Shown: piece by piece, positions 2,968 to 64,000 of the stretch
Layout of the letters: each line of letters begins with the position of its first letter
How positions within the stretch are numbered: position 1 is the first letter of the stretch
Assembly (NCBI GenBank): GCA_038249055.1
Contig: JBBRWS010000006.1
Span: forward strand, 927 to 64,926
From: Minisyncoccia bacterium
GTDB taxonomy: Bacteria; Patescibacteriota; Minisyncoccia; Phycocordibacterales; UBA9973
Reading direction: 5' to 3'
Length of the DNA stretch: 64,000 bases
Program-made: the position numbers and the translations under genes
The notes under the pieces: generated by a model
Seen by the model: the letters and a program-made list of their open reading frames with translations, nothing else
Databases searched by the model: none
What the model was told of the DNA's origin: nothing

Positions 2968-3172
2968 TGGCCGAACTGAGAGGTCCAACCACGTGTGGCC
3001 CCAGTGATTGTACCTCTAATGAGGAAACCCAAGGTCTTTTTAAAAAATATGATACGATTATTTTTATTTATAATCCATAACAGGGGTACAACCTTGATTG
3101 AGTACAATCACCTACTGGGCCGAAGCCACAGCCCGTGAGGTCAATTTGGTAATTGAAGCTTGGACCTCTATA
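2968..3172. repeat. Composite GC-rich palindromic repeat (two sub-elements) of the GAGGTCCAACC/GGTACAACC family
   Basis: gaggtccaaccacgtgtggccccagtgattgtacctc (2979-3017) and ggggtacaaccttgattgagtacaatcacctactgggccgaagccacagcccgtgaggtc...cttggacctcta (3083-3170). The second part aligns over about 95 bp with the copy at 5400-5490. Confidence 0.8.
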
Positions 3173-3179
3173 AAAACTC

Positions 3180-3953
3180 TTAAAAATAACTTAATATAAT
3201 TTTAGTGAAAAGTAGCCCAAAAAATGTTGCAAATATAAATGCTGGTTCAACAGCTAATATTTTGTTAATTTCTGATTCAATAAAATTTATTTTTGGGAAA
3301 AATTGTTTAAAAATGGTTTCAGATAATCTTTCTGATATAACAGGATAAATTTTCTTAAAAATAGTTTTTAAATAATAAAAAGCAAAGAACAAAATAGCAA
3401 AAATAAACCCTAAGGACAAGGAAACTAATACTCCCATCCATCCAGAAATCAGCATTAGAACTAACATTAACTCAGGACCCTTTTCCAAAAATCCTCCCCG
3501 ATAAAATTTCCAAGTTCTAAATACAAAATACATAAGACCTGAAAAAGTAAATAAAATAAAAATATTAAGCCATACTCTTCCCCAAATATAAAACAAGAAA
3601 TATCCAAGATTATTATTAAAAAGTGGACGAGTCCATTCTAAATAAGAAGGAAATGTAATTTCTACAGGAAGAGGAGAAGTTAATAAAAACTTAGTAACTT
3701 CACTTGCGGTTGACCATACATAGTACTGACCCCAAGAAACAAATAATCCATAAAAAATATTCAAACCGAGAGCGATAAGAATAAGTTTTAAAAATGAAAT
3801 ATTCTTTAGTCCAGTAAATATTTTTGACAGGAATTTATTGTTGGATTTTATCCAAGTAGGTTGAAAATAACGAATAGCTACTATGATTAAAAATAAAATC
3901 CATACACCTAAAACTATCGCGTTTAAATTAGAAAAAATAAAATTTAATATCAT
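3180..3953 (-). CDS. Hypothetical polytopic membrane protein
   Basis: 257 aa ORF with 6 or more hydrophobic segments. No prepilin-peptidase motifs (no CxxC, no DxxxD), so it is not called PilD. Confidence 0.5.
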   Translation of the reverse strand: MILNFIFSNLNAIVLGVWILFLIIVAIRYFQPTWIKSNNKFLSKIFTGLKNISFLKLILIALGLNIFYGLFVSWGQYYVWSTASEVTKFLLTSPLPVEITFPSYLEWTRPLFNNNLGYFLFYIWGRVWLNIFILFTFSGLMYFVFRTWKFYRGGFLEKGPELMLVLMLISGWMGVLVSLSLGFIFAILFFAFYYLKTIFKKIYPVISERLSETIFKQFFPKINFIESEINKILAVEPAFIFATFFGLLFTKIILSYF

Positions 3954-4014
3954 AATGCCCTATTATATACAAAAAACACCTCAGTGTAAAACTGAGGTGT
4001 TTTTAGAGAGAAAA

Positions 4015-4698
4015 TTAGAAATCTACTCCAGCTGCTGTCTTACCCAAAATTAATAAGTTAGTACCAGTTTCATAATAAAGATTACTATTTCCACCGTCAC
4101 TTAAATATTTATTGTCAGTTGAAGTATATGCTGTACTTTCTAGAGTAGCATCAATTTCAAAACCAATAGGACTTTGTGAACATCCATAACGATAAACTAA
4201 GTCTGTATTTGCAACATTAGTGCCTGGGGTTGCAACTGTATTTATAGGGTCAACAGGAACATTTGATATTGGAGAACCTCCAGATATATTTCCAAAATTA
4301 ACAGGAATCCAACCTGTACCATTTGTAAGTCCTGGAGTTGCTGATTGCACTAAAGCTGGAACACTGCCAGTTCCACCGTCTAATGTTGCATCTGTCATAG
4401 CAGTTCCAGATGGAAGAGAGTAAAATATTTTATTTGTTCCTGCCCATGTTCCAGTTGTAGCCTGACATTCAGCATTTGATGCTAAACCTCCTAGGTATAC
4501 AGGTGAGACACTTGTCATATAAAGACCAATAGCTGTTTTTAATGTACTCAAGTCGGAGATACGTTGAGCATCACGCGCCTTTTTTAAAGTTTCTGCTGGA
4601 TTCAAAACAATAACAAGAGCAACGGAAAGAATAGCTAAGATAGCTATAACAATCAAGAGCTCCAACAATGTAAAACCACCCTTTTTATTCTTTTTCAT
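4015..4698 (-). CDS. Type IV pilin/pseudopilin (prepilin with class III signal peptide)
   Basis: The likely start is MKKNKKGG|FTLLELLIVIAILAIL (internal ATG of the track ORF 4015..4743). This is a classic prepilin leader with an N-terminal hydrophobic helix. The C-terminal Cys pair is compatible with a disulfide loop. Confidence 0.8.
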   Translation of the reverse strand: MKKNKKGGFTLLELLIVIAILAILSVALVIVLNPAETLKKARDAQRISDLSTLKTAIGLYMTSVSPVYLGGLASNAECQATTGTWAGTNKIFYSLPSGTAMTDATLDGGTGSVPALVQSATPGLTNGTGWIPVNFGNISGGSPISNVPVDPINTVATPGTNVANTDLVYRYGCSQSPIGFEIDATLESTAYTSTDNKYLSDGGNSNLYYETGTNLLILGKTAAGVDF

Positions 4699-4897
4699 AA
4701 AAAATATATTTATAGAAATAAAATTATTAATAATATATAACACTTCGATATGGTAATTATATCAAAAAACATAAAAACAAACAAACAATTGTGGATAACT
4801 ATATTAAAACATTCAACATTTATAATAAATAGTGACCACTAGATATCTTAAAAAAATTCTTTTTAGTATTTATTAAGTAAAGAAATAAATTTAAAAT

Positions 4898-5281
4898 TTA
4901 TTTAAGATACATTTTTATTTTATTTATAATTTCTTGAATAGATTGATCTATTTTAACTAAATATTCAGTTGCTCCGAGTTCTAATGCTCGAGTCTTATCG
5001 TCTTGTTGTCCAAGATTTGAAATAATTATTATTGGAATTTTTGAATATTTTGAATTTTTTCTAATTTCCTCTAACACCCAAAAACCATCTTTCTTTGGAA
5101 TCATTAAATCAAGAATAACAAGGTCTGGATGTGCTTCTTCAAGGAGTTCTATTGCTTCTTCCCCATTACGGGCAAGAATTGAAAAAATTCCAGCTTTTGC
5201 GAGCTGTAATTGATAAACTTTTGAAATCTGAAAATCATCTTCTACTATTAGTATCCTCTTTTCATCTGTATCCATGTACAC
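4898..5281 (-). CDS. Single-domain response regulator receiver (CheY-like)
   Basis: 127 aa. ILIVEDD...DLVILDLMIP...K gives the acidic pocket, phospho-acceptor Asp and conserved Lys pattern. There is no output domain. Confidence 0.8.
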   Translation of the reverse strand: MYMDTDEKRILIVEDDFQISKVYQLQLAKAGIFSILARNGEEAIELLEEAHPDLVILDLMIPKKDGFWVLEEIRKNSKYSKIPIIIISNLGQQDDKTRALELGATEYLVKIDQSIQEIINKIKMYLK

Positions 5282-5367: not shown

Positions 5368-5490
5368 GGGAGTATACCTCCACACTTATATTTTTATAGA
5401 CATCCAACCTTGATTTAGTAAAATCACCTCACGGGCTAGCTGGCTTCGCCCAGTAGGTCATTATGCTTAATAAGAGGTTGTACATCTATA
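5368..5490. repeat. GC-rich palindromic repeat element (same family as 3083-3170)
   Basis: catccaaccttgatttagtaaaatcacctcacgggctagctggcttcgcccagtaggtcatt...aagaggttgtacatcta. The flanks are collinear with the 3083-3170 copy. The central 26-28 bp hairpin is inverted relative to that copy. Confidence 0.8.
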
Positions 5491-15780: not shown

Positions 15781-15784
15781 CAAA

Positions 15785-15810
15785 TAAAAAAACAGCGTAA
15801 GCTGTTTTTT
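15785..15810 (+). terminator. Rho-independent terminator after tRNA-Trp
   Basis: aaaaaaacagcgtaagctgtttttt. It is flanked by atcgccc / gggcgat, an inverted copy of the tRNA 3' acceptor strand. Confidence 0.7.
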
Positions 15811-15960
15811 AGGGCGATAGCAAGCAAACTGCTTTGCTTGCGTGGAGGCAGGCCGACATTATGGCCTGCACTTGTCGACGGGAATCGAAAAGCTTTTCGT
15901 TTTTCGGTGTTAACCGAAACGAAAAGGTATACTGTCCTTGTAGAGGAAGATATCCTCCAT
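15811..15960 (+). other. Conserved tRNA-downstream non-coding module, copy 1 (shared with 36383-36520)
   Basis: gggcgatAGCAAGCAAACTGCTTTGCTTGCGTG...TCGAAAAGCTTTTCGTT...CGAAAAGGTATACTG aligns with the tRNA-Ala-downstream region. A partial direct copy of the tRNA-Trp 3' end (tcctccatcg) lies at 15948-15957. Confidence 0.6.
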
Positions 15961-18165: not shown

Positions 18166-18357
18166 AATTTTTATTCTAGCATTTTAGCCAAATTTTTAAT
18201 ACACACTCTGACACCATAATAAAATGAGGATCATGAGTACATTTCTTGGTCCATATTGGACCTGTACACCTTTCGTATTTTCTAAGATTGGTAAATCATA
18301 TAAAATATACTCAAGGTTTTCAAGTCCTCTCACGCAAGCCGTACCAACGGCTTGCTT

Positions 18358-18414
18358 CCGGCACCATAATTAAAAAACCAGGACTTTGTCCTGGTTTTTT
18401 AATTATGGTGCCGG
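18358..18414. terminator. Extended palindrome/bidirectional terminator embedding the tRNA-Leu 3' end
   Basis: ccggcaccataattaaaaaacc-aggactttgtcct-ggttttttaattatggtgccgg. The arms are perfect 22-bp inverted repeats and the loop is itself palindromic. The right arm is the 3' end of tRNA-Leu. Confidence 0.8.
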
Positions 18415-24415: not shown

Positions 24416-24994
24416 GTGATTTCAAAGAAAGAAAAATTAAATAAATTAAACATTTTCTGGCAAAAAAATTGTACTTGCAAATTAAAAGCGACGGCAACAC
24501 AACCGGTTTTTGGAGATGGAAATGCAGAAAGTAAAATAGTATTTATAGGAGAAGCTCCTGGTAAAAAAGAAGATATCGAGGGAAAACCATTTATTGGAGC
24601 TGCGGGTAAATTTTTTAGTGAAATGCTTAGTTCCATAAAAATGAACCGAGAAGATGTATATATTACTAATATAGTTAAATATCGCCCACCAAACAATCGT
24701 GATCCAGATGAAGACGAAAAAATATCTTGTAATAAGTGGCTAATAGAAGAACTCAAAATAATAAACCCCAAATTAATTATATTTTTAGGTAGACATTCAA
24801 TGCTCCGATTTTTCCCCGAGGAAAAAATCGGAGCCATACACGGCAAACTTCTAGTTAAAAACGTTCCGGAACTAGGTGAGCAAAATTTTTTGCCTCTTTA
24901 TCATCCAGCCGCTGCACTTTATAATGGTAATTTAAGAAAAACTCTTATAAAAGATTTTAAGAAAATTCCAAAAATATTAGAAAAAATTAGTTAA
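24416..24994 (+). CDS. Uracil-DNA glycosylase, family 4
   Basis: Motif A is FIGEAPGKKED...GKPFIGAAGKFF, motif B is LYHPAAALYN. The N-terminal Cys cluster is compatible with an Fe-S family 4 UDG. Confidence 0.8.
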   Translation: MISKKEKLNKLNIFWQKNCTCKLKATATQPVFGDGNAESKIVFIGEAPGKKEDIEGKPFIGAAGKFFSEMLSSIKMNREDVYITNIVKYRPPNNRDPDEDEKISCNKWLIEELKIINPKLIIFLGRHSMLRFFPEEKIGAIHGKLLVKNVPELGEQNFLPLYHPAAALYNGNLRKTLIKDFKKIPKILEKIS

Positions 24995-26451: not shown

Positions 26452-26542
26452 ATAGAGGTCCAACCTCTACCTAAATTGAAAATAATTGAAATAAAACTGT
26501 TGATAAATAAAGGTATATTTTAGGTAGAGGTTGGACCTCTAT
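26452..26542. repeat. 24-bp perfect inverted repeats (hairpin-containing) of the GAGGTCCAACCTC family
   Basis: atagaggtccaacctctacctaaa at 26452-26475 and tttaggtagaggttggacctctat at 26519-26542. Each arm is itself a palindrome (tagagg-tccaa-cctcta). Located between divergent/convergent gene ends. Confidence 0.85.
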
Positions 26543-30247: not shown

Positions 30248-30460
30248 TTATAACAACAAACGAGGAGCGCATGCAAATAAATACCAATTTATTTGCATTG
30301 CGTCCGAGAGCAGTTGTTCTATAGTACTCTATATAACAACAAGAAAGGAGCATAAGCAAATTAATTAATATTTATTTGCTTAATGTCCGAATGCCGTTGT
30401 TATATCGTAATCGATATAACAACAAGAAAGGAGACAAGCAAATATTGAATTCTTAAATTT
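30248..30460. repeat. Tandem palindromic repeat array (about 2.5 units of about 82 bp) upstream of the T4CP-like gene
   Basis: Units begin with ataacaacaa(g/a)a(a/c)(g)gag at 30253, 30336 and 30416. Each has an internal hairpin gcaaataaat..atttatttgc. A perfect 12-bp inverted repeat gttgttatatcg-taa-cgatataacaac sits at a unit junction. Confidence 0.75.
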
Positions 30461-34571: not shown

Positions 34572-36083
34572 ATGAACGGAAAAATAAAACAAGGGCTAAC
34601 CAAAAATTCTATATCTAATGACTCATCTTTGATTAAGAATTCTAAAATAATTGATACTGAATTCAAAGATAATAATACTCGAAATAATGAAGATGAATTA
34701 TTAAAAAAAGAAGAAATATTACTGGAAGAAGGTGAAGAATTATTAGAAAAAGAAGAAACACTATTAGAGGAAAGTAAAAATATTATAAAAAAAGAAGAAA
34801 CGTTATTAGAGGAAAGTGAAAAATTATTAAAAGAAGGAAAAGATTATATAAAAAAACTTGGTCCAGGGATAATTACCGGAGCTGCCGATGACGACCCATC
34901 TGGAATTGCTACTTACTCACAAACAGGTGCTCAATATGGAACTGGATTATTATGGCTTGCAGCTTGGACATTCCCATTAATGGCAATGATCCAAGAAATG
35001 TGTGCTCGTATATCATTAGTTACAGGACGAGGTCTTGCTGCTAATATTAAACATGCTTATTCAAAAAAAGTTTTATATCTCTGTACAGCATTACTTTTTA
35101 TAGCTAATACCTTAAATATCGGTGCAGATCTTGGAGCAATGGCTAAAGCAGTTCAATTAATATCTCCATCTATGTCTTTCGCGTTCTTAGTTATTTTTAT
35201 AGGAATTGCTGGTTTACTCATGGAAATATTTATTCCATATAAGAAATACGCTAAATATCTAAAATGGTTAGTAATAACATTGTTCTCGTATGTAATAACT
35301 GGATTACTTATTAATATGGATTGGTCTATGTTATTAAAAGATGGAATTATTCCTCATATTACATTTTCTAAAACACAGATTCTTCTCATCACAGGTATAC
35401 TAGGAACAACAATTTCTCCTTATCTTTTCTTTTGGCAAACATCTCAAGAAGTTGAAGAACAAATAGCTGAAGGTAAAACAACCGCTCATTCACGAAGAGG
35501 AACTAATGCTGCTGAAATAAAATCAATGAGAATAGATATATGGTCAGGAATGTTTCTTTCAAATATGGTAATGTTTTTTATTATCGCAGTATGTGCAAAT
35601 ACCCTTTTTGTAAATGGAATTACAGATATAGCAACCGCAAGCGATGCAGCAGCTGCACTTAAACCATTTGCAGGACCATTTGCATCAATACTCTTTACTA
35701 TTGGAATAATTGGAACTGGATTATTGGCTATTCCAGTTTTAGCTGGTTCCACTTCTTATGCAATATCCGAAAGTTTAGGATGGAAAGAAGGTTTATATCG
35801 TAAATTAAATGAGGCTCGAGCTTTTTATGGAGTAATAATTGTATCTATTTTTATCGGTATAATTATAAACTTTCTAGGAATAAACCCAATCAAAGCTCTT
35901 ATATATTCTGCCATTGCAAATGGTATAGTAGCCCCTGTTATAATTGTATGTATAGTTCATATTAGTTCAAGCCATAAAATTATGGGGCATTTTAAAAATT
36001 CTAAATTTGTAAATATAGTTGGATGGGCGTTATCTGCTCTTATGGGGATTACTGCAGTCGCCGCAATATATTCCCTCTTTTAG
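34572..36083 (+). CDS. NRAMP-family divalent metal transporter with N-terminal low-complexity E/K/L repeat
   Basis: The core is GPGIITGAADDDPSGIATYSQTGAQYG (NRAMP TM1 signature) with 11 TMs. The N-terminal roughly 90 aa carry repeated EETLLEES(K/E) motifs. Confidence 0.7.
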   Translation: MNGKIKQGLTKNSISNDSSLIKNSKIIDTEFKDNNTRNNEDELLKKEEILLEEGEELLEKEETLLEESKNIIKKEETLLEESEKLLKEGKDYIKKLGPGIITGAADDDPSGIATYSQTGAQYGTGLLWLAAWTFPLMAMIQEMCARISLVTGRGLAANIKHAYSKKVLYLCTALLFIANTLNIGADLGAMAKAVQLISPSMSFAFLVIFIGIAGLLMEIFIPYKKYAKYLKWLVITLFSYVITGLLINMDWSMLLKDGIIPHITFSKTQILLITGILGTTISPYLFFWQTSQEVEEQIAEGKTTAHSRRGTNAAEIKSMRIDIWSGMFLSNMVMFFIIAVCANTLFVNGITDIATASDAAAALKPFAGPFASILFTIGIIGTGLLAIPVLAGSTSYAISESLGWKEGLYRKLNEARAFYGVIIVSIFIGIIINFLGINPIKALIYSAIANGIVAPVIIVCIVHISSSHKIMGHFKNSKFVNIVGWALSALMGITAVAAIYSLF

Positions 36084-36342: not shown

Positions 36343-36349
36343 CCCGTTG

Positions 36350-36382
36350 AAAAAAGAGACATGCGAAAGCATGCCTTTTTTC
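36350..36382 (+). terminator. Rho-independent terminator after tRNA-Ala
   Basis: aaaaaagagacatgcgaaagcatgcctttttt. It is flanked by cgctaaggtccacc / ggtggaccttagcg, a 14-nt inverted copy of the tRNA 3' end. Confidence 0.75.
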
Positions 36383-36520
36383 TTAGGTGGACCTTAGCGA
36401 GCAAACTACTTTGCTCGCGTGCGGCGATTAGTAAATCGAACCGTGAGGAACTCGGAAAGCTTTTCGTTATAAATTTTAATTTAATAATTTAAATTTATCG
36501 AAAAGGTGTACTGAAGCAGT
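36383..36520 (+). other. Conserved tRNA-downstream non-coding module, copy 2
   Basis: ggaccttAGCGAGCAAACTACTTTGCTCGCGTG...TCGAA...GGAAAGCTTTTCGTT...CGAAAAGGTGTACTG. The motif order is the same as at 15811-15942. Confidence 0.6.
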
Positions 36521-36732
36521 AGGCTTCGAGAAATGTAATCATGGTCCGCCTATCGTGATACACAATATTTAGATGCAAAGCATACTATATAAAAAGTTTT
36601 AGTCGCGGGTGAGAAGCGCGAATAAGTACATTCGCCTACTGGGTACTCGCGGTCCGCTACTTGTAGGCTTCGAGAAATGTACTCATGGTCCGCCTTTCGT
36701 GATACACAATATTTAGATGCAAAGCATATCAC
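36521..36732. repeat. Two 65-bp direct repeats
   Basis: aggcttcgagaaatgta(a/c)tcatggtccgcct(a/t)tcgtgatacacaatatttagatgcaaagcata occurs at 36521-36585 and 36666-36730. The track ORF 36550..36732 is a translation artefact of this repeat. A partial copy of the tRNA-Ala T-arm (gcggtccgcta) lies at 36651-36661. Confidence 0.85.
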
Positions 36733-36791
36733 ACAATAAAAACAGCCATCTTAAAAAGACAGCTGTTAATTTAAACTTAGGATAAAAAAAA

Positions 36792-38809: not shown

Positions 38810-38862
38810 TAAAAAATAGAGGTTGTACGTCTATGGAAGACGTCCAACCTCTATTTTTTTAT
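38810..38862. terminator. Bidirectional terminator formed by a GAGGTTG(G/T)AC-family palindromic element
   Basis: aaaaaatagaggttgtacgtcta-tggaa-gacgtccaacctctattttttt, between convergent genes. Confidence 0.8.
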
Positions 38863-38872
38863 TATTTTATAT

Positions 38873-39850
38873 TTATTCCCATTCAAATTTTCTTCCAAAA
38901 TGTCCCCACGTGCAAGTATCAGAAAATTTAACAACATCCAATTTCAAGTGATTATGTATCCCCTTTGGAGTTAAATCGTAATCAGTTATTTCTACTTCTT
39001 TTCCATCTATTACAGCCACAGCCATTACTGGCTCACTCTTACCTATTGCATAAGCAAGCTTTGTATATACTTCTTTCGCATTATGCTTCTTTAGTAAGTC
39101 CACAGCTATTTTACGAGCCATATAAGCACCAGAGCGATCTACTTTTGTATAATCCTTACCAGAGAAAGAACCTCCTCCAATTGTAATCTCTGGTCCATAG
39201 TTATCTACTATCAATTTTCTTCCAGAAAGTCCTGTGTCTGCATCAAATCCACCTTGATTCCATTCTCCCGCAGGATTTATAAGATATTCTTCTGATTCAA
39301 TAATATTTTTTACAAGTTCTAAAAGTTTATCGTTTTTAGTATTTTGAAAACTAGCTACGACTGTAGTAACGACACCATTATCTACTGTCACTTGAGTCTT
39401 TCCATCATAAGGATATACTTCAAATATTTTCTGACATAAATTTCGGGCAAGATTATATTCGAGAGGTAAATATGTATCAGTCTCACTTGTAGCATAACCT
39501 TTCATTATTCCTTGGTCTCCCGCTCCACCCGTATCAACTCCTTGTGCTATTTCTGGACTTTGTAAAACTATATTCGACAAAATTTTAAAATCTTTACCTA
39601 CTATTTTTTTTATAATAGCTTCTATGTCTGGATTTGATTTTGAAGTAACTTCTCCATTGATGGCTACCAGATTATGCCCACCCATTACTTCTATAGCACA
39701 ACGACTATTCTTATCTCCTTCTAAATATGCATCTAAAATACTATCCGCAATAAAATCACATATTTTATCTGGGTGCATTGGACTCACAAACTCTGCAGTT
39801 TTTTTACTCATGCTTGATTTATAAGGAAGAATGACTATATAAATCGGCAT
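38873..39850 (-). CDS. metK: S-adenosylmethionine synthetase (short form)
   Basis: Near the N-terminus: FVSPMHPDKICDFIADSILDAYL (the GHPDK motif). Also GGGAFSGKD. The likely start is the internal ATG (MSKKTAEF..., about 39811). Total length is about 312-325 aa. Confidence 0.8.
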   Translation of the reverse strand: MPIYIVILPYKSSMSKKTAEFVSPMHPDKICDFIADSILDAYLEGDKNSRCAIEVMGGHNLVAINGEVTSKSNPDIEAIIKKIVGKDFKILSNIVLQSPEIAQGVDTGGAGDQGIMKGYATSETDTYLPLEYNLARNLCQKIFEVYPYDGKTQVTVDNGVVTTVVASFQNTKNDKLLELVKNIIESEEYLINPAGEWNQGGFDADTGLSGRKLIVDNYGPEITIGGGSFSGKDYTKVDRSGAYMARKIAVDLLKKHNAKEVYTKLAYAIGKSEPVMAVAVIDGKEVEITDYDLTPKGIHNHLKLDVVKFSDTCTWGHFGRKFEWE

Positions 39851-40165
39851 CCTGTTAAATAAGATTTAACAGGGTTGATTAAAATATAATACGCTTCGCT
39901 CCTTTATTTTAATTAAAAAATTCCTCATAATGAGGAAAGATATAGATGACTAGTCTTATCTTTCCATAATAATACACTTGCATTATTTGGCTGGATTTAG
40001 CACCTTGCTTTCGCGGGTTGCTGATGGGTCATTGAGCCAGTTGCTCTCGCCATACTCTTGATAACTAACTATTTAGTTGTAATTTTATTATAGCATAATT
40101 TTATAAACAAAAATATTTCCATAAAAAAAATAACGAGGATATATCCTCGTTATTTTTTTATAATA

Positions 40166-46207: not shown

Positions 46208-47188
46208 TTATTCTTTCTCACAAAAATATATCGGACCATCTTCTAGCCCAAAATAATCTATTTTACTTTTATCTAAGGTAGAAATAAACATATCGGCTTT
46301 AACTTTAAACCCAGCCCCTCTTAATTTATCTGGAAAATCATTTCCGTATAATCTCACATGGTCAAATTGCCAAAAAGCTTTAGTCCTTTCCTCAGGGGAA
46401 ATTATAGAAAAATCTTCATAAGTCTGGGCTCGACTAGTATCAATAGGAACATCTATAATTGCAAAGCCTCCCTTTTTTAATACTCTATAAAGTTCTGACA
46501 TCGCATTTTTATCATTTTCAACGTGTTCTAAAACATGCGAACAGAAAATAATATCAAACGATGAGTCTGAGAATGAAAGATGTGTTATGTCTTCTACTCT
46601 CATTGCGTTATTTTTGTCTATATCAACACTTAAATAATCAATATTCTTATACGATTTAAACAGCTTTGTAATTAATGGTTCTGGTGCAAAATGTAGAACT
46701 TTAATTTGCTTATTTGTTGGAATTACTTTTTTAAGATATAAAAAGAATGATCTATGCCTGGGTTGAGAAAGACAATTTGGACAAGTTGAATTTACATATA
46801 TATGACCATACCCACAATCAAAATCAACAAATTTTTCCCCATACCATCCACATACATTACACTTTACTTTGTATAATTTTGGGAATAAAAAATGCATTAG
46901 AGACAACCAAAAGATATATATTTTTTTAAATAAATTTAAATGATATCTAAAAAAGAAACTTAGAGTTAACCCAAGTACCAAAATAAAAACTTGGACAATT
47001 GGTGGTAAGGCACAGTTTCCATAAAATACTACAATTGTCCCCTTACCTAACGCCCAATTTAAATAGCTTATCTCTATTAAAGAATGAATAATGAGAGCAA
47101 AAAAAAGACCTAAAAATAAATAAGATATCGCATATAATAATAATTTTGTTTTTCTTTTACTATTTTTAATTCTCTTGATTATATCCAT
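46208..47188 (-). CDS. Membrane-anchored class I SAM-dependent methyltransferase with zinc-ribbon
   Basis: N-terminal TMs, then CNVCGW...CPNC. Methyltransferase motifs VLHFAPEP...DIIFCSHVLEHV...LKKGGFAII. Confidence 0.6.
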   Translation of the reverse strand: MDIIKRIKNSKRKTKLLLYAISYLFLGLFFALIIHSLIEISYLNWALGKGTIVVFYGNCALPPIVQVFILVLGLTLSFFFRYHLNLFKKIYIFWLSLMHFLFPKLYKVKCNVCGWYGEKFVDFDCGYGHIYVNSTCPNCLSQPRHRSFFLYLKKVIPTNKQIKVLHFAPEPLITKLFKSYKNIDYLSVDIDKNNAMRVEDITHLSFSDSSFDIIFCSHVLEHVENDKNAMSELYRVLKKGGFAIIDVPIDTSRAQTYEDFSIISPEERTKAFWQFDHVRLYGNDFPDKLRGAGFKVKADMFISTLDKSKIDYFGLEDGPIYFCEKE

Positions 47189-52128: not shown

Positions 52129-52174
52129 ATAGAGGTTGGACGTCTACGATAGACGTCCAACCTCTATTTTTTTA
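52129..52174. terminator. Bidirectional terminator formed by a GAGGTTGGAC-family palindromic element
   Basis: atagaggttggacgtcta-cga-tagacgtccaacctctattttttt, between convergent genes. Confidence 0.8.
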
Positions 52175-54927: not shown

Positions 54928-55027
54928 GAGTTTATTATAACAAATAAAATTGTAATATGTAAAAAAAATTAAGTTTTCAAATATCAAACATCTGAAAAAA
55001 ATAAAAATGAGGCTTAAAATAGTATCT

Positions 55028-55120
55028 TGGTAGAGGTCCAACCTCTACCAAAAAAATACCCATATAAATAAGGATATAATAAATTAAAAAACTCAAAAAG
55101 GTAGAGGTCCAACCTCTACC
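55028..55120. repeat. Two identical 21-bp palindromes ggtagaggtccaacctctacc about 71 bp apart
   Basis: At 55029-55049 and 55100-55120, between the ddl start and the uvrC stop. Same sequence family as 26452-26542. Confidence 0.85.
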
Positions 55121-55124
55121 TAAA

Positions 55125-56507
55125 TTAGGTGAGGAAATTTTTATTTCTCTTTAGTTTATGAAAGGCAATAGCAAACCTATGAGATTCAGTATTTATTAAA
55201 AGAATTTCTTTTTTATATTTCTTAATAATTAACTCATCCCCCATTATTGCTTTCGCTTTGTGTTTATCGTCTTTAACAACCGACACAACTGGAATTTTAA
55301 ATTGATATCGATTTAAAACTGATTTAGCTATATTAATTTGAGCTACCCCTCCATCCATAACTATTAAATTTGGAAGTCCCCACTCTGTATGACGCAAGCG
55401 GCGCGATAAAACTTCTTCGAGTGCACCAGTATCATTTGATTTAGTTTGAGTTCTAATTATAAACTTTTTATATTCACTTTTATTTAATTCACCATTTTCA
55501 ATTACGGTCATAACTCCAACCATATTAGAACCAGATAAATGTGCTATATCGTAAGCTTCAATTCTGAAGAGAGCCTTAGAGGTACAACATCCGGAGCCAG
55601 CTTGATGTTGGACCTCTCGGCGAGGAGATCCCTGCCCGACTACGTCATTCGGGCGGGCGAAGACCTTTTGAAAAGGATTTTCATGCATAATATCATCTTT
55701 AATTAAAGCAACATCATTTATATGCTCAAGTGCAAAAATTCTTTTCTTTATTTCATCAGCCTTTTCAAATTCTTTCTTTTTTGCAAAAGACATCATCTCT
55801 TTTTTAAAATTTGAAATAATTATCTTCTTTTTTCCTTCAAAAAATAATTTGAGATTTCTTATATTTTTCTTATATCCAAGCAACATATCAGAAAAATCTT
55901 TTTCGAAATAGCCCGCCCGAGCTTCAGGGGTACAACCTCCGAAGCCATTTGAGGTTGGACCTCTACGGCTCGGGCATTCAATTAAAGGAACAAGACCTAG
56001 CTGTCTATAAAATTCTTTGTTATTTTTTTTACTTGATTGTTCATCAATAAAAGGGAAAATTCTTCTTACAATTTTCATTGCATCTCTCAATTGCATTCCG
56101 TTTGGAAAGGGACCATAAACCACATCATAATTTTCTTTATTCAAATTTCTACCTCGAAGAACCAAAACCTTTGGCAATAAATCTTTAGTAATACAAACAT
56201 AGTTAAAACTTTTATTATCTTTTTCTTTAGTATTATATTTAGGTAAATATTTCTTAATTAAATTTGCTTCTAATATCAGTGCCTCCAAGACACTGTCTGT
56301 TTCTTTCCATTTAATAGAAGTTGCTTGAGTTACCATATCGAGCAATAATGGTCCCCGAGTTGCTATTAGATCATTCCCAAAATAACTCTTTACTCTATCA
56401 GAGAGATTTGTCGCTTTACCTATATAAAGTATATCTTTCCCTTTATAAAAGAAATATACACCTGGTTTTTTGGGTAATTTTATTTTTTTAAATTGTTGAC
56501 TATTCAC
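55125..56507 (-). CDS. uvrC: Excinuclease ABC subunit C (short form lacking the C-terminal HhH region), carrying two in-frame palindromic-element insertions
   Basis: GIY-YIG N-terminus (LPKKPGVYFFYKGKDILYIGKATNLSDRVKSYF). UVR domain (FEKADEIKKRIFALEH). RIEAYDIAHLSGSNMVGVMTV...EYKKFII (the RIEcfDiSH block). C-terminal endonuclease domain LIVMDGGVAQ. 460 aa. Confidence 0.85.
   Translation of the reverse strand: MNSQQFKKIKLPKKPGVYFFYKGKDILYIGKATNLSDRVKSYFGNDLIATRGPLLLDMVTQATSIKWKETDSVLEALILEANLIKKYLPKYNTKEKDNKSFNYVCITKDLLPKVLVLRGRNLNKENYDVVYGPFPNGMQLRDAMKIVRRIFPFIDEQSSKKNNKEFYRQLGLVPLIECPSRRGPTSNGFGGCTPEARAGYFEKDFSDMLLGYKKNIRNLKLFFEGKKKIIISNFKKEMMSFAKKKEFEKADEIKKRIFALEHINDVALIKDDIMHENPFQKVFARPNDVVGQGSPRREVQHQAGSGCCTSKALFRIEAYDIAHLSGSNMVGVMTVIENGELNKSEYKKFIIRTQTKSNDTGALEEVLSRRLRHTEWGLPNLIVMDGGVAQINIAKSVLNRYQFKIPVVSVVKDDKHKAKAIMGDELIIKKYKKEILLINTESHRFAIAFHKLKRNKNFLT
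55576..55665. mobile_element. GC-rich nested palindromic element inserted in frame in uvrC (copy 1)
   Basis: ttagaggtacaacatccggagccagcttgatgttggacctctcggcgaggagatccctgcccgactacgtcattcgggcgggcgaag. It encodes the odd G/P/R/Q/C-rich peptide VVGQGSPRREVQHQAGSGCCTSKALF between the UVR domain and the RIEAYD block. Confidence 0.75.
55911..55978. mobile_element. GC-rich nested palindromic element inserted in frame in uvrC (copy 2)
   Basis: gcccgcccgagc-ttcag-gggtacaacctccgaagccatttgaggttggacctc-tacg-gctcgggc. It encodes ECPSRRGPTSNGFGGCTPEARAG. Confidence 0.75.
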
Positions 56508-59678: not shown

Positions 59679-59755
59679 CGTGATATAGCTCAGTTGGTAG
59701 AGCACTAAGCCTAAAAAACTCAGAGGTCGGGAGTTCAAGTCTCTCTATCACGACG
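59679..59755 (+). tRNA. tRNA-like gene with canonical acceptor, D and T arms but a 9-nt anticodon loop (CCUAAAAAA) and an A-C mismatch in the anticodon stem
   Basis: cgtgata-ta-gctc-agttggta-gagc-a-ctaag-cctaaaaaa-ctcag-aggtc-gggag-ttcaagt-ctctc-tatcacg-a. The architecture parallels tRNA-Lys/Thr. Terminator at 59797-59829. Confidence 0.5.
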
Positions 59756-60691: not shown

Positions 60692-62902
60692 TTATTTTTT
60701 ATCTTTTGGTAGAAGTTTATTATTTAATGCTATAATTTCATCTCTTAGTATAGCTGCCGTTTCGAAATCCAATTCCTTTACTGCTTTATTCATTTCTTTC
60801 TCTTTAAGATTAATTATTTTTTCGTATATAATTTTATTTCTATCTTGATCTGAAAGTAATAAATTTTTAATTGATTCTCTCTCCCCCTTTCCTTTATTGC
60901 TCTTATTTTTTAGAAATGCTTTTTTAAATAATTCCACATCCAAATCAAGTTCTACTCCTACAGCTTTTTCGTGTTTATTTTCTAATTCTTCTGTTATATC
61001 TTTTATCTTTTTTATAATTGTTTTGGGGGTAATATTATGTTTTTTATTGTAAGCTATTTGTATATTGCGACGACGAGTTGTTTCCTTAATAGCATTTTCA
61101 AGTGCATCGGTCATAATATCTGCATATAAAATAACACGACCTTCTACATTACGAGCTGCACGTCCTATAGTTTGTATTAAAGACGTCTCAGAACGCAAGA
61201 ATCCCGCCTTGTCAGCATCTAAAATACCTATTAGGGCTAACTCGGGTAAATCTAATCCTTCACGTAGCAAGTTTACTCCTACGAGTATATCCATATCCCC
61301 CTTTCTAAATGCAGTCAAAATCTGAATTCTTTCAATTGTTTTAATTTCGCTGTGCAAATATTCAGCTTTCATTCCCTTTTCTTTTAAATAAATAGACAAA
61401 TCTTCAGCCATTTTTTTTGTTAAAGTTGTAGCAATAACTCTAAATCCTTTCTTTATTGTTTTTTCAGCTTCTATAATAAAGTCTTGAATTTGACCAGGGT
61501 AATCTTTCAGAGGTCCAACTTCCTCCGACGTACAACCTCTGGGGCCACATGAGGTTGGACGTCTTAAGACCTCTGAAATATTTGAGGACCTCGCAATAAG
61601 CTTCTCATTTGTGGAAGCGGAGACTGGTTTTACAATTATCTCTGGATCAATCAAACCAGTAGGTCTAATTATTTGTTCTACTATTTGGTCGCTTGCTGAC
61701 TTTTCCTTTTCACTGGGAGTTGCCGAAACGTATATTACCTGTCCCGTGCGTTCTTCAAATTCATTAATCTTTAGTGGACGATTATCTCGAGCTGATGGAA
61801 GTCTAAAACCAAACTCTATCAGAGTATTTTTTCGAGATGCATCTCCCGCATACATTCCACCTATTTGTGGAAGTGTAACGTGTGATTCGTCTATAATTGT
61901 TAAAAATTCATTTCTAAAATATGAGAGCAATGTTTCAGGAGCTTCTCCTTCTTTCTTACCAGACATCTGCCTGGAATAATTTTCTATTCCATTACAATAA
62001 CCAATTTCTTTAATCATAGCCAAATCGTAACTTGTTCTTCTTTTTATTCTTTCTGCTTCAAGTGGTTTTCCTTCCTTTTCAAATTTTTTAAGTTGAGAAT
62101 CGAGTTCAAGTTTAATATTTTTTATTGCAATCTTTAATTGATCTTTGTTTGTAATAAAGTGCTTTGCAGGAAAAAGAAAAATATTTTTTTCCTCTTTTAT
62201 TATATGAGATGAAATTGGATCTACTTTTGCAATCCTTGAAATAACTCCTCTCTCAAATTCTATTTGATAAACAAAAGTTTCAGATATTGGCATAATCTCA
62301 ACTTTCTGTCCTATTGACCTAAAATTCCCTGGATTAATATCTGCATTAGTTCGTTCAAAATGAATTATAACTAATTTCTTCATTAGTTCGATACGTTCCA
62401 TTTTCATTCCAACTTCTAGCTTTAAATTAACTTTCTCATAATCCTCAGGGCTACCCAATCCATAAATACAAGATACGGAAGCCACAATAATAACATCTGG
62501 ACGAGTAAGGAGCGATTGTGTAGTTGCATGTCTAAGGCGGTCAATTTCTTTGTTTATTTGAGCATCTTTTTCAATATAAGTATCTGAAGCAGGCATATAT
62601 GCCTCTGGTTGATAGTAGTCATAATAGGATACAAAATAATGAACTGCTGCATCAGGAAAAAACTCTCGGAACTCTTGAGCGAGCTGTGCAGCAAGCGTTT
62701 TATTGTGGGCTATTACTAGAGTCGGTTTATTCCATTCTGCAATTACGTTTGCAACTGTAAAGGTTTTACCAGTACCGGTTGCCCCAAGAAGTGTTTGTTT
62801 TTGCATTCCTTCCTTTAATCCTTTTAACAACTCCGAAATTGCTTTTGGTTGATCACCATCTGGTTTATAGTCACTTTTTAATTTAAAAACTTTATCTTTC
62901 AT
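60692..62902 (-). CDS. uvrB: Excinuclease ABC subunit B carrying an in-frame palindromic-element insertion
   Basis: Helicase motif I GATGTGKT. DEAD-like DESH (IIDESHVT). Motif VI QTIGRAARN. C-terminal UVR domain FETAAILRDEIIAL. 736 aa. Confidence 0.95.
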   Translation of the reverse strand: MKDKVFKLKSDYKPDGDQPKAISELLKGLKEGMQKQTLLGATGTGKTFTVANVIAEWNKPTLVIAHNKTLAAQLAQEFREFFPDAAVHYFVSYYDYYQPEAYMPASDTYIEKDAQINKEIDRLRHATTQSLLTRPDVIIVASVSCIYGLGSPEDYEKVNLKLEVGMKMERIELMKKLVIIHFERTNADINPGNFRSIGQKVEIMPISETFVYQIEFERGVISRIAKVDPISSHIIKEEKNIFLFPAKHFITNKDQLKIAIKNIKLELDSQLKKFEKEGKPLEAERIKRRTSYDLAMIKEIGYCNGIENYSRQMSGKKEGEAPETLLSYFRNEFLTIIDESHVTLPQIGGMYAGDASRKNTLIEFGFRLPSARDNRPLKINEFEERTGQVIYVSATPSEKEKSASDQIVEQIIRPTGLIDPEIIVKPVSASTNEKLIARSSNISEVLRRPTSCGPRGCTSEEVGPLKDYPGQIQDFIIEAEKTIKKGFRVIATTLTKKMAEDLSIYLKEKGMKAEYLHSEIKTIERIQILTAFRKGDMDILVGVNLLREGLDLPELALIGILDADKAGFLRSETSLIQTIGRAARNVEGRVILYADIMTDALENAIKETTRRRNIQIAYNKKHNITPKTIIKKIKDITEELENKHEKAVGVELDLDVELFKKAFLKNKSNKGKGERESIKNLLLSDQDRNKIIYEKIINLKEKEMNKAVKELDFETAAILRDEIIALNNKLLPKDKK
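61510..61594. mobile_element. GC-rich palindromic element inserted in frame in uvrB
   Basis: agaggtccaacttcctccgacgtacaacctctggggccacatgaggttggacgtcttaagacctctgaaatatttgaggacctcgc. It encodes ...RRPTSCGPRGCTSEEVGPLKDYPGQ... Confidence 0.75.
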
Positions 62903-63138: not shown

Positions 63139-64000
63139 TCAAGAAAGATAATTTTTTAAAAATTCTTCTTTAAAATCAAAAAAATTATCCTCAAGTATGG
63201 ATTTACGCATATCTGAAACAAGCTTATTTATAAAATAAATATTATGTATTGAAGCGAGTGTAGCCCCCAACATTTCTTTTGCTCGAAAAAGATGAGACAT
63301 ATAACTTCTTGTATAATTTATACATGTATAACATTCACAACCGGAATCAATTATATTAAAATCTTTAACAAATTTTGCATTAAGAATATTTATTTTTCCA
63401 TTCTTAGTAAATAAAGTTCCATTGCGAGCAATACGGGTAGGACCAACGCAATCAAAAAGGTCTACTCCATTTTCTACTCCCATAAACAAGTCTTCTGGTT
63501 CCCCTATGCCAAGCAAATGACGTGGTTTTTCTTCTGGAAGAATTTCATTCACCCATTTTACTGCTGTAGACATGTCTTCTTTTGCAAAAGAACCACCAAT
63601 TCCAAAACCATCAAAATCCATACTACCAATAACTTCTGCTGATTTTTTACGAAGTATTTCTGAACGTCCCCCTTGAACAATGCCAAAGAGAGCTTGAGGA
63701 AAAGAAGGGGTCCGAAATCCTAGAGGTACAACCTCCGAAGCCAGTTGAGGTTGGACCTCCAGAATTGCGGGTGTAGTATCTTTTATTAATTCCCTCTTTT
63801 TATGTTCTATTAAACTTCTCTTTGCCCAAGCATGTGTACGAGAAAGTGCTTCTTCTTGATAGCGATTATTTTCTGTTGGAGACGTACATTCATCAAAAGC
63901 AAAAATAATATCGGCTCCGAGATTATGTTGAATTTCTATTGATTTTTCTGGAGTAATATAATGAAGTGAACCATCTATGTGTGAGCGAAAAGAAACACCA
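63139..64000 (-). CDS. tgt: Queuine tRNA-ribosyltransferase (N-terminus beyond window end) carrying an in-frame palindromic-element insertion
   Basis: Manual reverse translation is open to position 64000. It reads ...FRSHIDGSLHYITPEKSIEIQHNLGADIIFAFDECTSPTENNRYQEEALSRTHAWAKRSLIEHKK[RELIKDTTPAILEVQPQLASEVVPLGFRTPSFPQ]ALFGIVQGG...MDFDGFGIGG...CECYTC..H zinc site. The track shows only the 3' ATG-initiated part (63139..63621). Confidence 0.9.
   Translation of the reverse strand, partial: GVSFRSHIDGSLHYITPEKSIEIQHNLGADIIFAFDECTSPTENNRYQEEALSRTHAWAKRSLIEHKKRELIKDTTPAILEVQPQLASEVVPLGFRTPSFPQALFGIVQGGRSEILRKKSAEVIGSMDFDGFGIGGSFAKEDMSTAVKWVNEILPEEKPRHLLGIGEPEDLFMGVENGVDLFDCVGPTRIARNGTLFTKNGKINILNAKFVKDFNIIDSGCECYTCINYTRSYMSHLFRAKEMLGATLASIHNIYFINKLVSDMRKSILEDNFFDFKEEFLKNYLS
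63706..63772. mobile_element. GC-rich palindromic element inserted in frame in tgt
   Basis: aggggtccgaaatcctagaggtacaacctccgaagccagttgaggttggacctccagaattgcgggtg. The core is identical in arrangement to the uvrC copies. Confidence 0.75.

Follow-up and report, generated by a model that had tools for sequence, protein, structure and literature searches.

We report that a family of GC-rich palindromic repeats, built on a 43-nt hairpin unit, occurs both between genes and in frame inside the genes uvrC, uvrB and tgt in a 64,000-nt stretch of DNA (the window; GC content ~30% throughout). The uvrC open reading frame (ORF) encodes an intact protein of 460 amino acids (aa), which matches the Pfam domains GIY-YIG and UvrC_RNaseH_dom (an RNase H-like endonuclease). 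Its homologues are named Candidatus Nomurabacteria or Paceibacterota, are 393-493 aa long and are 62-77% identical to it (the nearest 73-77%), and going by the names on the closest of these the host would be a Paceibacteria/Nomurabacteria-type Patescibacterium. Canonical UvrC is ~600 aa long. Since this clade's UvrC is much shorter, and since Pfam finds nothing beyond the RNase H-like domain in the present protein or its close homologues, the C-terminal HhH (helix-hairpin-helix) domain is probably missing.

The original prediction for this DNA, made from its letters, placed two GC-rich palindromic blocks inside uvrC and held that they leave the frame and the catalytic domains unbroken. Both blocks were found where predicted within the intact ORF, with ~53% GC overall and 0.55-0.65 per 60 nt vs ~0.30 for the window, and the two Pfam matches bear out the second point. 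The features of the gene, numbered from the first letter of the window, are as follows (bit scores here and below are from the covariance model R1):

55125-56507, minus strand: uvrC ORF with two inserts (ORF list, Pfam and homologue lengths)
55571-55679, minus strand: insert A in uvrC, ~37 codons, NPFQKVFARPNDVVGQGSPRREVQHQAGSGCCTSKAL
55576-55619, plus strand in the model orientation GTAC->GGAC (gene on minus): core hairpin, copy A, variant ACAACATC/GATGTTGG (60.6 bits, E 2e-18; fold)
55634-55654, no strand: small hairpin GCCCGA-ctacgtcat-TCGGGC beside copy A (sequence; fold)
55904-55979, minus strand: insert B in uvrC, ~25 codons, ECPSRRGPTSNGFGGCTPEARAGYF
55924-55966, plus strand: core hairpin, copy B (56.1 bits; fold)

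The sizes of 23-30 aa predicted for the inserts fit insert B (~25 aa), while insert A amounts to ~37 aa relative to the shortest orthologous linkers. Likewise, the outer GCCCG...CGGGC repeats that had been said to flank both cores do enclose that of copy B, where an outer stem GCCCGAGC...GCTCGGGC (55915-55922 / 55968-55975) is present in this copy only; at copy A the corresponding hairpin adjoins the core instead of surrounding it. Insert A is a composite of the core element and the remnant of a second palindrome family: the small hairpin adjoins a remnant encoding 'FQKV', and a peptide family 'FQKVLGSPR...ARPDHFEK' occupies the same site in orthologues. The GCCCG...CGGGC repeats probably belong to another palindrome family (read as 'FQKVLGSPR...EARPDHFEK' in orthologues), and resemblance in both peptide and DNA suggests that the core element became nested into or beside it. 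The predicted UvrC peptide across the insert junction is GPTSNGFGGCTPEAR. The region of insert B had also been described as Cys-rich, which does not hold for this clade: it is the insert that supplies the cysteines there, and C105 is the sole invariant cysteine.

Common to both uvrC blocks is the 43-nt unit GGTACAAC(C/A)TC - loop - GA(G/T)GTTGGACC. It is laid out as AGAG-GTACAAC(C/A)TC-loop-GA(G/T)GTTGGAC-CTCT, a GC-rich imperfect hairpin with a 15-bp stem, one internal A.G mismatch and a loop of 10-13 nt. Often the unit is lengthened by outer pairing that differs between loci, or is nested with palindromes of other families; past the invariant AGAG...CTCT ends the stem runs up to ~12 further bp, with sequences that differ from copy to copy. 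Insertions that contain the unit are thus discrete, from 43 to ~110 nt (longest when composite), and have a conserved loop. The hairpins are very stable (-34 to -40 kcal/mol across 81-101 nt), and the two uvrC copies fold with z = -2.7 and -4.5 vs shuffled controls (copy B having the latter value). R1 and the underlying alignment were built from 36 copies, in which 94% of the cells of the 15-pair stem were paired, vs 27-52% when the 3' partners were slid by 1-3 columns. Moreover, the outer stem pairs, which the search pattern left unconstrained, show many double-sided changes. Sub-families have compensated variants, of which ACAACATC/GATGTTGG is present in uvrC copy A and in five copies of a related locus (L029, see below).

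The 35-nt core of copy B (55929-55963) recurs at 63725-63759 with one mismatch, while 0 matches are expected by chance (100 dinucleotide-preserving shuffles). Since the core recurs, the shuffles give none and the folds beat their controls, the uvrC observation is real and not a chance match. R1 detected five full copies in the window (E 1e-16 to 1e-18) and recovered the short forms weakly, and a scan for strong GC-rich hairpins found, inside long ORFs, only four copies of this family and an unrelated one at 24802. In the Rfam search of the window at gathering thresholds only tRNAs and a SAM riboswitch were obtained, and no family for the hairpin unit. That the unit is a dispersed repeat was confirmed by its presence in uvrB, tgt, intergenic DNA and related genomes, and its extent goes beyond the original prediction, with uvrB, tgt and intergenic copies, several co-resident families and insertion hot spots across Paceibacteria. 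The remaining features of the family in the window are:

2977-3019, minus strand: intergenic full copy, variant ACAATCAC/GTGGTTGG (56.5 bits; sequence)
3086-3170, plus strand: long intergenic variant with the same termini and GAAGCCA loop and an extra inner stem
5391-5485, minus strand: second long intergenic variant, inverted relative to 3086-3170, with the same termini and GAAGCCA loop (fold z = -4.2)
26452-26542, no strand: loopless short palindromes TAGAGGTCCAACCTCTA at 26452 and 26524, an inverted pair forming a REPIN-like doublet (repeat finding, hairpin scan, R1)
38816-38854, no strand: arm-motif hairpin AGAGGTTGTACGTCT...AGACGTCCAACCTCT with T-runs on both sides, between two converging ORFs
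52129-52167, no strand: bidirectional terminator-like hairpin, a perfect-palindrome version of the arm motif (hairpin, R1 and terminator scans)
55030-55119, no strand: two loopless short palindromes GGTAGAGGTCCAACCTCTACC at 55030 and 55101, terminator-like, between the uvrC stop and ddl (repeat finding, R1, terminator scan)
60692-62902, minus strand: uvrB ORF, 736 aa, with one insert (Pfam; alignment to a PDB structure)
61508-61603, minus strand: uvrB insert, 32 codons relative to the related locus L026, with its core at 61524-61566 (59 bits)
63139-63999, minus strand: 3' part of the tgt ORF, which runs off the window, with one insert (Pfam TGT)
63720-63762, plus strand: core hairpin in tgt (58.7 bits)

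The two long variants (~90 nt, an inverted pair) bracket a 2.2-kb segment with ORFs within 3180-5281; the three ORFs encode a hypothetical protein, a pilin-like protein with an N-methylation motif and a response regulator.

Several of the short forms look like transcription terminators. The terminator scan scored 52126-52170, 55025-55053 and 55099-55121 as terminator-like, and the hairpin at 38816 resembles a two-way terminator, although it is not among the 20 terminator-like sites of that scan. The arm motif that builds these structures, the 13-14-nt GAGGTTG(G/T)ACCTCT, could in principle be recognised by a type IV pilus/competence machinery and accumulate like the DNA uptake sequences (DUS) of Neisseria. 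DUS are biased to repair genes. The arm motif is present both in terminator-like inverted pairs and in uvr genes, type IV pilus genes lie in the window and a ComEC gene adjoins one copy. Against this, 16 of the 18 arm motifs in the window stand in palindromic pairs and just two alone, whereas uptake signals are mainly single; the density is low (~1 motif per 3.5 kb), and the copies are discrete insertions with a conserved loop rather than motifs built by point substitution. We consider an uptake function very unlikely and rejected it on account of the rarity of lone arm motifs.

Three syntenic relatives (L026, L027 and L029), with the gene order TGT-UvrB-PdaC-like-UvrA-small ORF-UvrC-Ddl, were compared with the window by codon alignment; the flanks of the inserts are ~90% identical. 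L026 and L027 both lack the uvrB insert, of which L029 has a simpler version; both also lack insert A of uvrC, and L027 lacks insert B as well. Because these relatives have empty sites between conserved flanks, the uvrC and uvrB blocks are insertions, as had been predicted: close syntenic orthologues lack the segments at exactly these positions. Full copies in the ~21-kb syntenic region number 0 in L027, 2 in L026 and 6 in L029, and UvrA of L029 has an extra insert of 37 aa. In tgt, the element family found at the site differs from one syntenic relative to the next, and at least one further GC-rich palindrome family (TCTCAGGTCCTCGGACGAGG...GGGGCCAGACC) is present in frame in the relatives at these positions:

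L029, 7581-7703: in uvrA
L029, 10361-10462: in uvrC
L027, 2950-3045: in tgt
L026, 4007-4195: in tgt, a 189-nt nested hairpin (-83.7 kcal/mol)

At site B of UvrC, which follows FYxQLGLxP, ~35 of 120 orthologues have no insert and the others hold quite different families; at site A, which lies between HINDVALIK and FRIEAYDIAH, the shortest linkers measure ~8 aa and at least five other insert families occur. Segments shared by unrelated lineages, which would have spoken against insertion, were not seen; instead, different families occupy the same sites in different genomes.

That nothing was inserted, and that the segments are native lineage-specific linkers with chance similarity or else assembly artefacts, has in its favour that linkers are generally variable, and nothing more. 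We give this reading practically no weight and regard it as refuted: nucleotide identity extends across unrelated genes and intergenic DNA, orthologous sites are empty, and the same family is present in independent assemblies from NCBI, JGI and ENA.

What is conserved among the copies is the nucleic-acid hairpin and not the peptide, because one and the same nucleotide sequence is translated in more than one frame and from either orientation. In the uvrB copy, the inner 25 nt (CAACCTCATGTGGCCCCAGAGGTTG) do not differ between the window and L029 but are read as PTSCGPRGC in one and as QPHVAPEVV in the other; on the two sides of them the window carries 10 and 17 additional nt, which together restore the frame relative to L029. 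Two reading frames of the unit are used in the window genes (EVQ... and RGPTS.../RRPTS...), both orientations occur in the ORFs of other genomes (10 vs 7), and the palindrome family TCTCAGGTCCTCGGACGAGG...GGGGCCAGACC of the relatives is read as FSQVLGRG... or as FFSGPRTR....

The inserts had also been predicted to fall in linkers, and this agrees with a structure model of UvrC and with alignments of uvrB and tgt to solved structures. In the AlphaFold2 model of UvrC (107 aligned sequences; mean predicted local distance difference test score, pLDDT, of 80) the only segments with pLDDT <50, a low score that partly reflects sparse alignment columns, are residues 174-201 (insert B) and 272-311 (insert A), i.e. 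exactly the two inserts, and both are modelled as unstructured connections between well-folded domains. Site A is directly N-terminal of the RNase H-like domain, which starts at residue ~313. The extra residues 429-468 of UvrB fall between adjacent residues 428|428 of the solved UvrB 9gy7_E, and aa 65-101 of the tgt query correspond to 11 residues in Z. mobilis TGT, so that the segment is ~26 residues longer.

Such exact placement at inter-domain linkers might reflect a selected cis function at domain boundaries, e.g. ribosome pausing for co-translational folding, mRNA stability or RNase III processing, or binding of a host protein. The hairpin and its mismatch are conserved over distant lineages, terminators are made from the same arm motif, different families repeatedly occupy the same hot spots, and a bias to repair genes is noted in the literature. 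A filter of pure tolerance, however, predicts the linker location equally well. Moreover, close relatives with near-identical proteins lack the inserts (L027 has none in ~21 kb), many orthologues have bare short linkers, and unrelated element families interchange at one site. We therefore regard a cis function as improbable.

With respect to distribution, the exact core pattern was found at 25 loci in GTDB species-representative genomes, nearly all of them Patescibacteria metagenome-assembled genomes (MAGs): the hosts are Moranbacteria, Paceibacteria, Nomurabacteria, one bin labelled Saccharibacteria and one contig of an Acidobacteria bin, the last of which (58% GC) is probably due to chance or mis-binning. 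A slightly relaxed pattern gave 77 metagenome loci with 29-44% GC, and the virus/viral-contig, phage and plasmid collections searched contained no copy of the element. Inverted doublets, as at 26452/26524 in the window, are also present in L096 (114-147/173-206) and in L057.

A census covered 94 non-redundant copies from Patescibacteria MAGs. Thirty of them lie in frame and free of stops within ORFs of ≥150 aa, and 64 lie outside such ORFs, 22 being ≤40 nt from an ORF end and the others elsewhere in intergenic DNA. With 30 of 94 copies in genes vs a coding density of ~88%, the unit is strongly depleted from coding DNA, which is what the loss of most insertions in genes would produce. On average the unit has 5.06 of 6 frames open, vs 2.78 for random host segments of the same length; being open in about five of six frames partly explains why it is tolerated in ORFs. 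Six copies have same-strand open frames abutting on both sides; five of these pairs were checked by Pfam, and every Pfam-matched pair represents different, unrelated genes, so that no split gene was found among the 94 copies.

These numbers bear on whether the elements are read at all. Ribosomes might bypass them, as in T4 gene 60 and with the 'byp' elements of yeast mitochondria, or they might be removed from the mRNA, and the units are indeed very stable hairpins that form GC islands in AT-rich genes and superficially look like mitochondrial GC clusters and byps. Yet 30 of 30 genic copies are in frame and free of stops and 0 of 94 split a recognisable gene; the +10/+17-nt difference in uvrB restores the frame exactly, which is expected only if the ribosome reads the insert. 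We consider bypass or excision to be extremely unlikely.

On the basis of these data we suggest, with a probability of roughly 0.78, that the unit represents a non-coding, non-autonomous palindromic repeat family of Patescibacteria, of the class that includes repetitive extragenic palindromes (REPs) and the Rickettsia palindromic elements (RPEs). Its copies would be spread around an AT-rich genome by some process. Intergenic copies would lie close to the ends of genes and act as terminator hairpins or look like them, and a copy that landed in a gene would survive only if in frame, without a stop and within a solvent-exposed linker, the many open frames being of help. A surviving genic copy would then be transcribed and translated as a passive loop rich in G/P/R/S/C, and the inserts in uvrC, uvrB and tgt would be such survivors.

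Several points weigh against this interpretation, apart from the sparse alignment columns at the UvrC inserts. Pfam detected no transposase domain among ~55 window ORFs, and no ORF like those of the insertion sequences (IS) IS200/IS608 was found in 891 kb around >100 copies (the IS200 and IS608 queries were validated as PF01797; that for the REP-associated tyrosine transposases, RAYTs, failed validation, and sensitivity for RAYTs was poor). No target-site duplication is present in 81 of the 94 copies, and those of 2-3 nt in the rest are consistent with chance. The invariance of the A.G mismatch was partly imposed by the search pattern, the mismatch being kept in 9 of ~10 copies found independently of that pattern. 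That relatives share the uvrB and tgt sites could be due to old inheritance and loss rather than repeated gain, and the sites were compared among relatives above strain level, so that ongoing mobility is an extrapolation from these. That the inserts are translated is predicted from the sequence, and the neutrality of the added peptide is presumed. Finally, four of the five window copies lie inside the tgt-uvrB-uvrA-uvrC cluster, and this clustering in repair genes, a bias also noted in the literature, is unexplained by pure neutrality.

The unit ends in TCAG, TTAG, CTAG, ACAG or CCAG. The GTAG and CGTC tags of REPs are not conserved: ~4 of 72 ends show GTAG, and CGTC is present, as GGACGTC, in 2 of 36 copies; the short loopless forms more often carry GGTAG. 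No conserved target motif was found at the insertion sites of the 94 copies. The locus-specific extension of the stem may have arisen by insertion into existing palindromes or elements, by fold-back duplication of the flanks or by quasi-palindrome correction.

Among known repeats, RPEs show much the same behaviour: many genes of a reduced, AT-rich genome carry them in frame and at places that suit the protein fold (PMC10969869); ten families, RPE-1 to RPE-10, have been described (Ogata et al. 2000, summarised in PMC10969869 and PMC3733652). As here, they are dispersed palindromes of a small, AT-rich, reduced genome, with several coexisting families, located in frame in unrelated housekeeping genes (including uvrB) at fold-compatible positions, and no dedicated transposase is known. 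Unlike the RPEs, which are ~100-150 bp, the present unit is 43 nt and up to ~110 nt when composite, is strongly GC-rich relative to its host, has locus-specific stem extensions and belongs to another host phylum, Patescibacteria. The comparison holds for behaviour only. For RPE-1 translation has been shown, whereas that of the hairpin unit is deduced from its reading frames. The RPE-like behaviour that had been proposed for the uvrC elements stands and is not taken to imply membership of an RPE family; intragenic REPs in uvrA/B/C are equally close or closer.

GTAG- or CGTC-tagged REPs inside genes, which add 20-30 aa, were reported by Di Nocera et al. 2013 (PMC3733652). These intragenic REPs have a striking preference for uvrA/B/C, recBCD, polA and dnaE2, and among the examples are uvrB of R. 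conorii and the two uvrA genes of O. terrae (PMC3733652). Like the present unit, REPs and REPINs are imperfect GC-rich stem-loops (20-40 nt), mostly extragenic and near gene 3' ends, present as singletons and inverted doublets and lacking target-site duplications, with a minority in frame in genes, in particular uvrA/B/C and other repair genes, where they add 20-30 aa. In contrast, the defining GTAG/CGTC end tag is not conserved here, no RAYT was found (891 kb; RAYT query unvalidated), the genic fraction is high (~1/3 of the sampled copies and 4/5 in the window), and Patescibacteria are not among the phyla given in PMC3733652.

A more specific version of the interpretation preferred above, which names the mobilisation mechanism, is a strict REP-RAYT system, where the hairpins are moved as single-stranded DNA by a domesticated Y1 (HUH) transposase encoded by one gene per genome outside the window. 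It would account for short imperfect palindromes with a conserved internal mismatch, for their mostly extragenic position with many copies near ORF 3' ends, for the inverted doublets and for the lack of target-site duplications, as in IS200/IS605-type chemistry; some copies also start with GTAG, and REPs are known within uvr genes. Given that the GTAG/CGTC tag is found at only ~4 of 72 and 2 of 36 ends, and that no Y1_Tnp-like ORF was detected in the window or in the 891 kb (with the RAYT query unvalidated), we hold this version to be rather unlikely. Quite unlikely as well, in our view, is a bolder alternative, a clade-wide superfamily of transposase-independent hairpin elements with several nesting families, spread by fold-back or template-switch events that target or create palindromes, constituting a major source of lineage-specific insertions in essential proteins and having a real (non-neutral) preference for nucleotide-excision-repair genes. 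Spread by fold-back or template switching would explain the locus-specific inverted extensions and the absence of both target-site duplications and a transposase.

Other classes were considered as well. The intergenic versions may resemble the SPRITE repeats. To our knowledge, SPRITE-type repeats are not frequent as in-frame genic insertions. SPRITE is named, for Streptococcus pneumoniae, in PMC10969869, and the intergenic versions here are likewise GC-rich hairpins with T-runs at gene ends, some of which are bidirectional. [quoted passage not shown] The unit shares the first four of these properties; unlike in MITEs, target-site duplications are lacking (81 of 94 copies), the whole unit is one hairpin rather than terminal inverted repeats around a spacer, and no parent IS or transposase was detected among the ~55 window ORFs. 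PARCEL-type palindromic coding repeats (PMC2996958) are tandem and intragenic, whereas the units here are single and dispersed, and they were rejected. In the literature library searched, nothing relevant was found that connects Candidate Phyla Radiation (CPR)/Patescibacteria/Parcubacteria with palindromic elements, MITEs, REPs, RAYTs or REPINs. The unit is consequently best described as a REP/RPE-like intragenic repeat in a new host clade with a new sequence family, and not as an RPE or a tagged REP proper; its novelty is lowered by the fact that uvr genes of other phyla are already known to carry REP/RPE insertions in frame.

If the unit is a repeat family of this kind, streamlined Patescibacteria, which are generally thought to be poor in mobile DNA, tolerate selfish palindromic repeats inside essential genes, and the parallel with Rickettsia suggests that this class of element is connected with genome reduction and AT-richness. 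At linker hot spots in UvrA/B/C, in TGT and probably in many more proteins, the elements make lengths vary by 25-40 aa, and this affects gene calling, alignments, phylogenetic markers, domain annotation and structure prediction in the clade. Inserts that recur in uvrABC across unrelated phyla (PMC3733652), and now here, provide a new independent test case. Moreover, a compact hairpin with a mismatch, locus-specific extension and no target-site duplication is suited to the study of REP/RPE-like movement without an evident transposase, and its unexplained anatomy (mismatch, stem extension, no target-site duplication, no transposase) could point to an undescribed propagation mechanism.

Other structured or repeated segments of the window are as follows. 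Three of its four tRNA genes share a 3' arrangement: a terminator-like hairpin is followed by 7-15 nt that are the reverse complement of the 3' end of the tRNA in question, and these by a hairpin common to all three, AGC(A/G)AGC...GCT(T/C)GCGTG, with Trp and Ala also sharing the tail ...AAAGCTTTTCGT.

15782-15900, plus strand: tRNA-Trp with the arrangement
18290-18405, minus strand: tRNA-Leu with the arrangement
36346-36470, plus strand: tRNA-Ala with the arrangement
59679-59754, plus strand: tRNA-Phe (ARAGORN), anticodon AAA and not the usual GAA, without the downstream structure of the other three

The structure downstream of tRNA-Ala folds at -69.5 kcal/mol (z = -8.3), and no Rfam family matches the arrangement. 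Downstream of tRNA-Ala there is also a non-coding 77-nt direct repeat (36519-36595 / 36663-36739) with copies that are 91% identical and 144 nt apart, and the sequence at 36604-36675 between them has a partial likeness to the long element variants. Two tandem 83-nt units, 73% identical, occupy intergenic DNA at 30249-30414, each with an internal palindrome GCATGCAAATAAAT...ATTTATTTGCATTGC. In-frame tandem repeats of 21 nt (34681-34841) form the E/K-rich N-terminus of a Nramp transporter ORF (34572-36083). A methyltransferase ORF at 46208-47188 (minus strand) has Pfam matches to the second half of the profile at 192-245, or at 118-263 when gapped, and may hold another insertion. Finally, a SAM riboswitch (S-box; 39953-40067, minus strand) lies upstream of the metK ORF (38873-39850), which is an ordinary arrangement.

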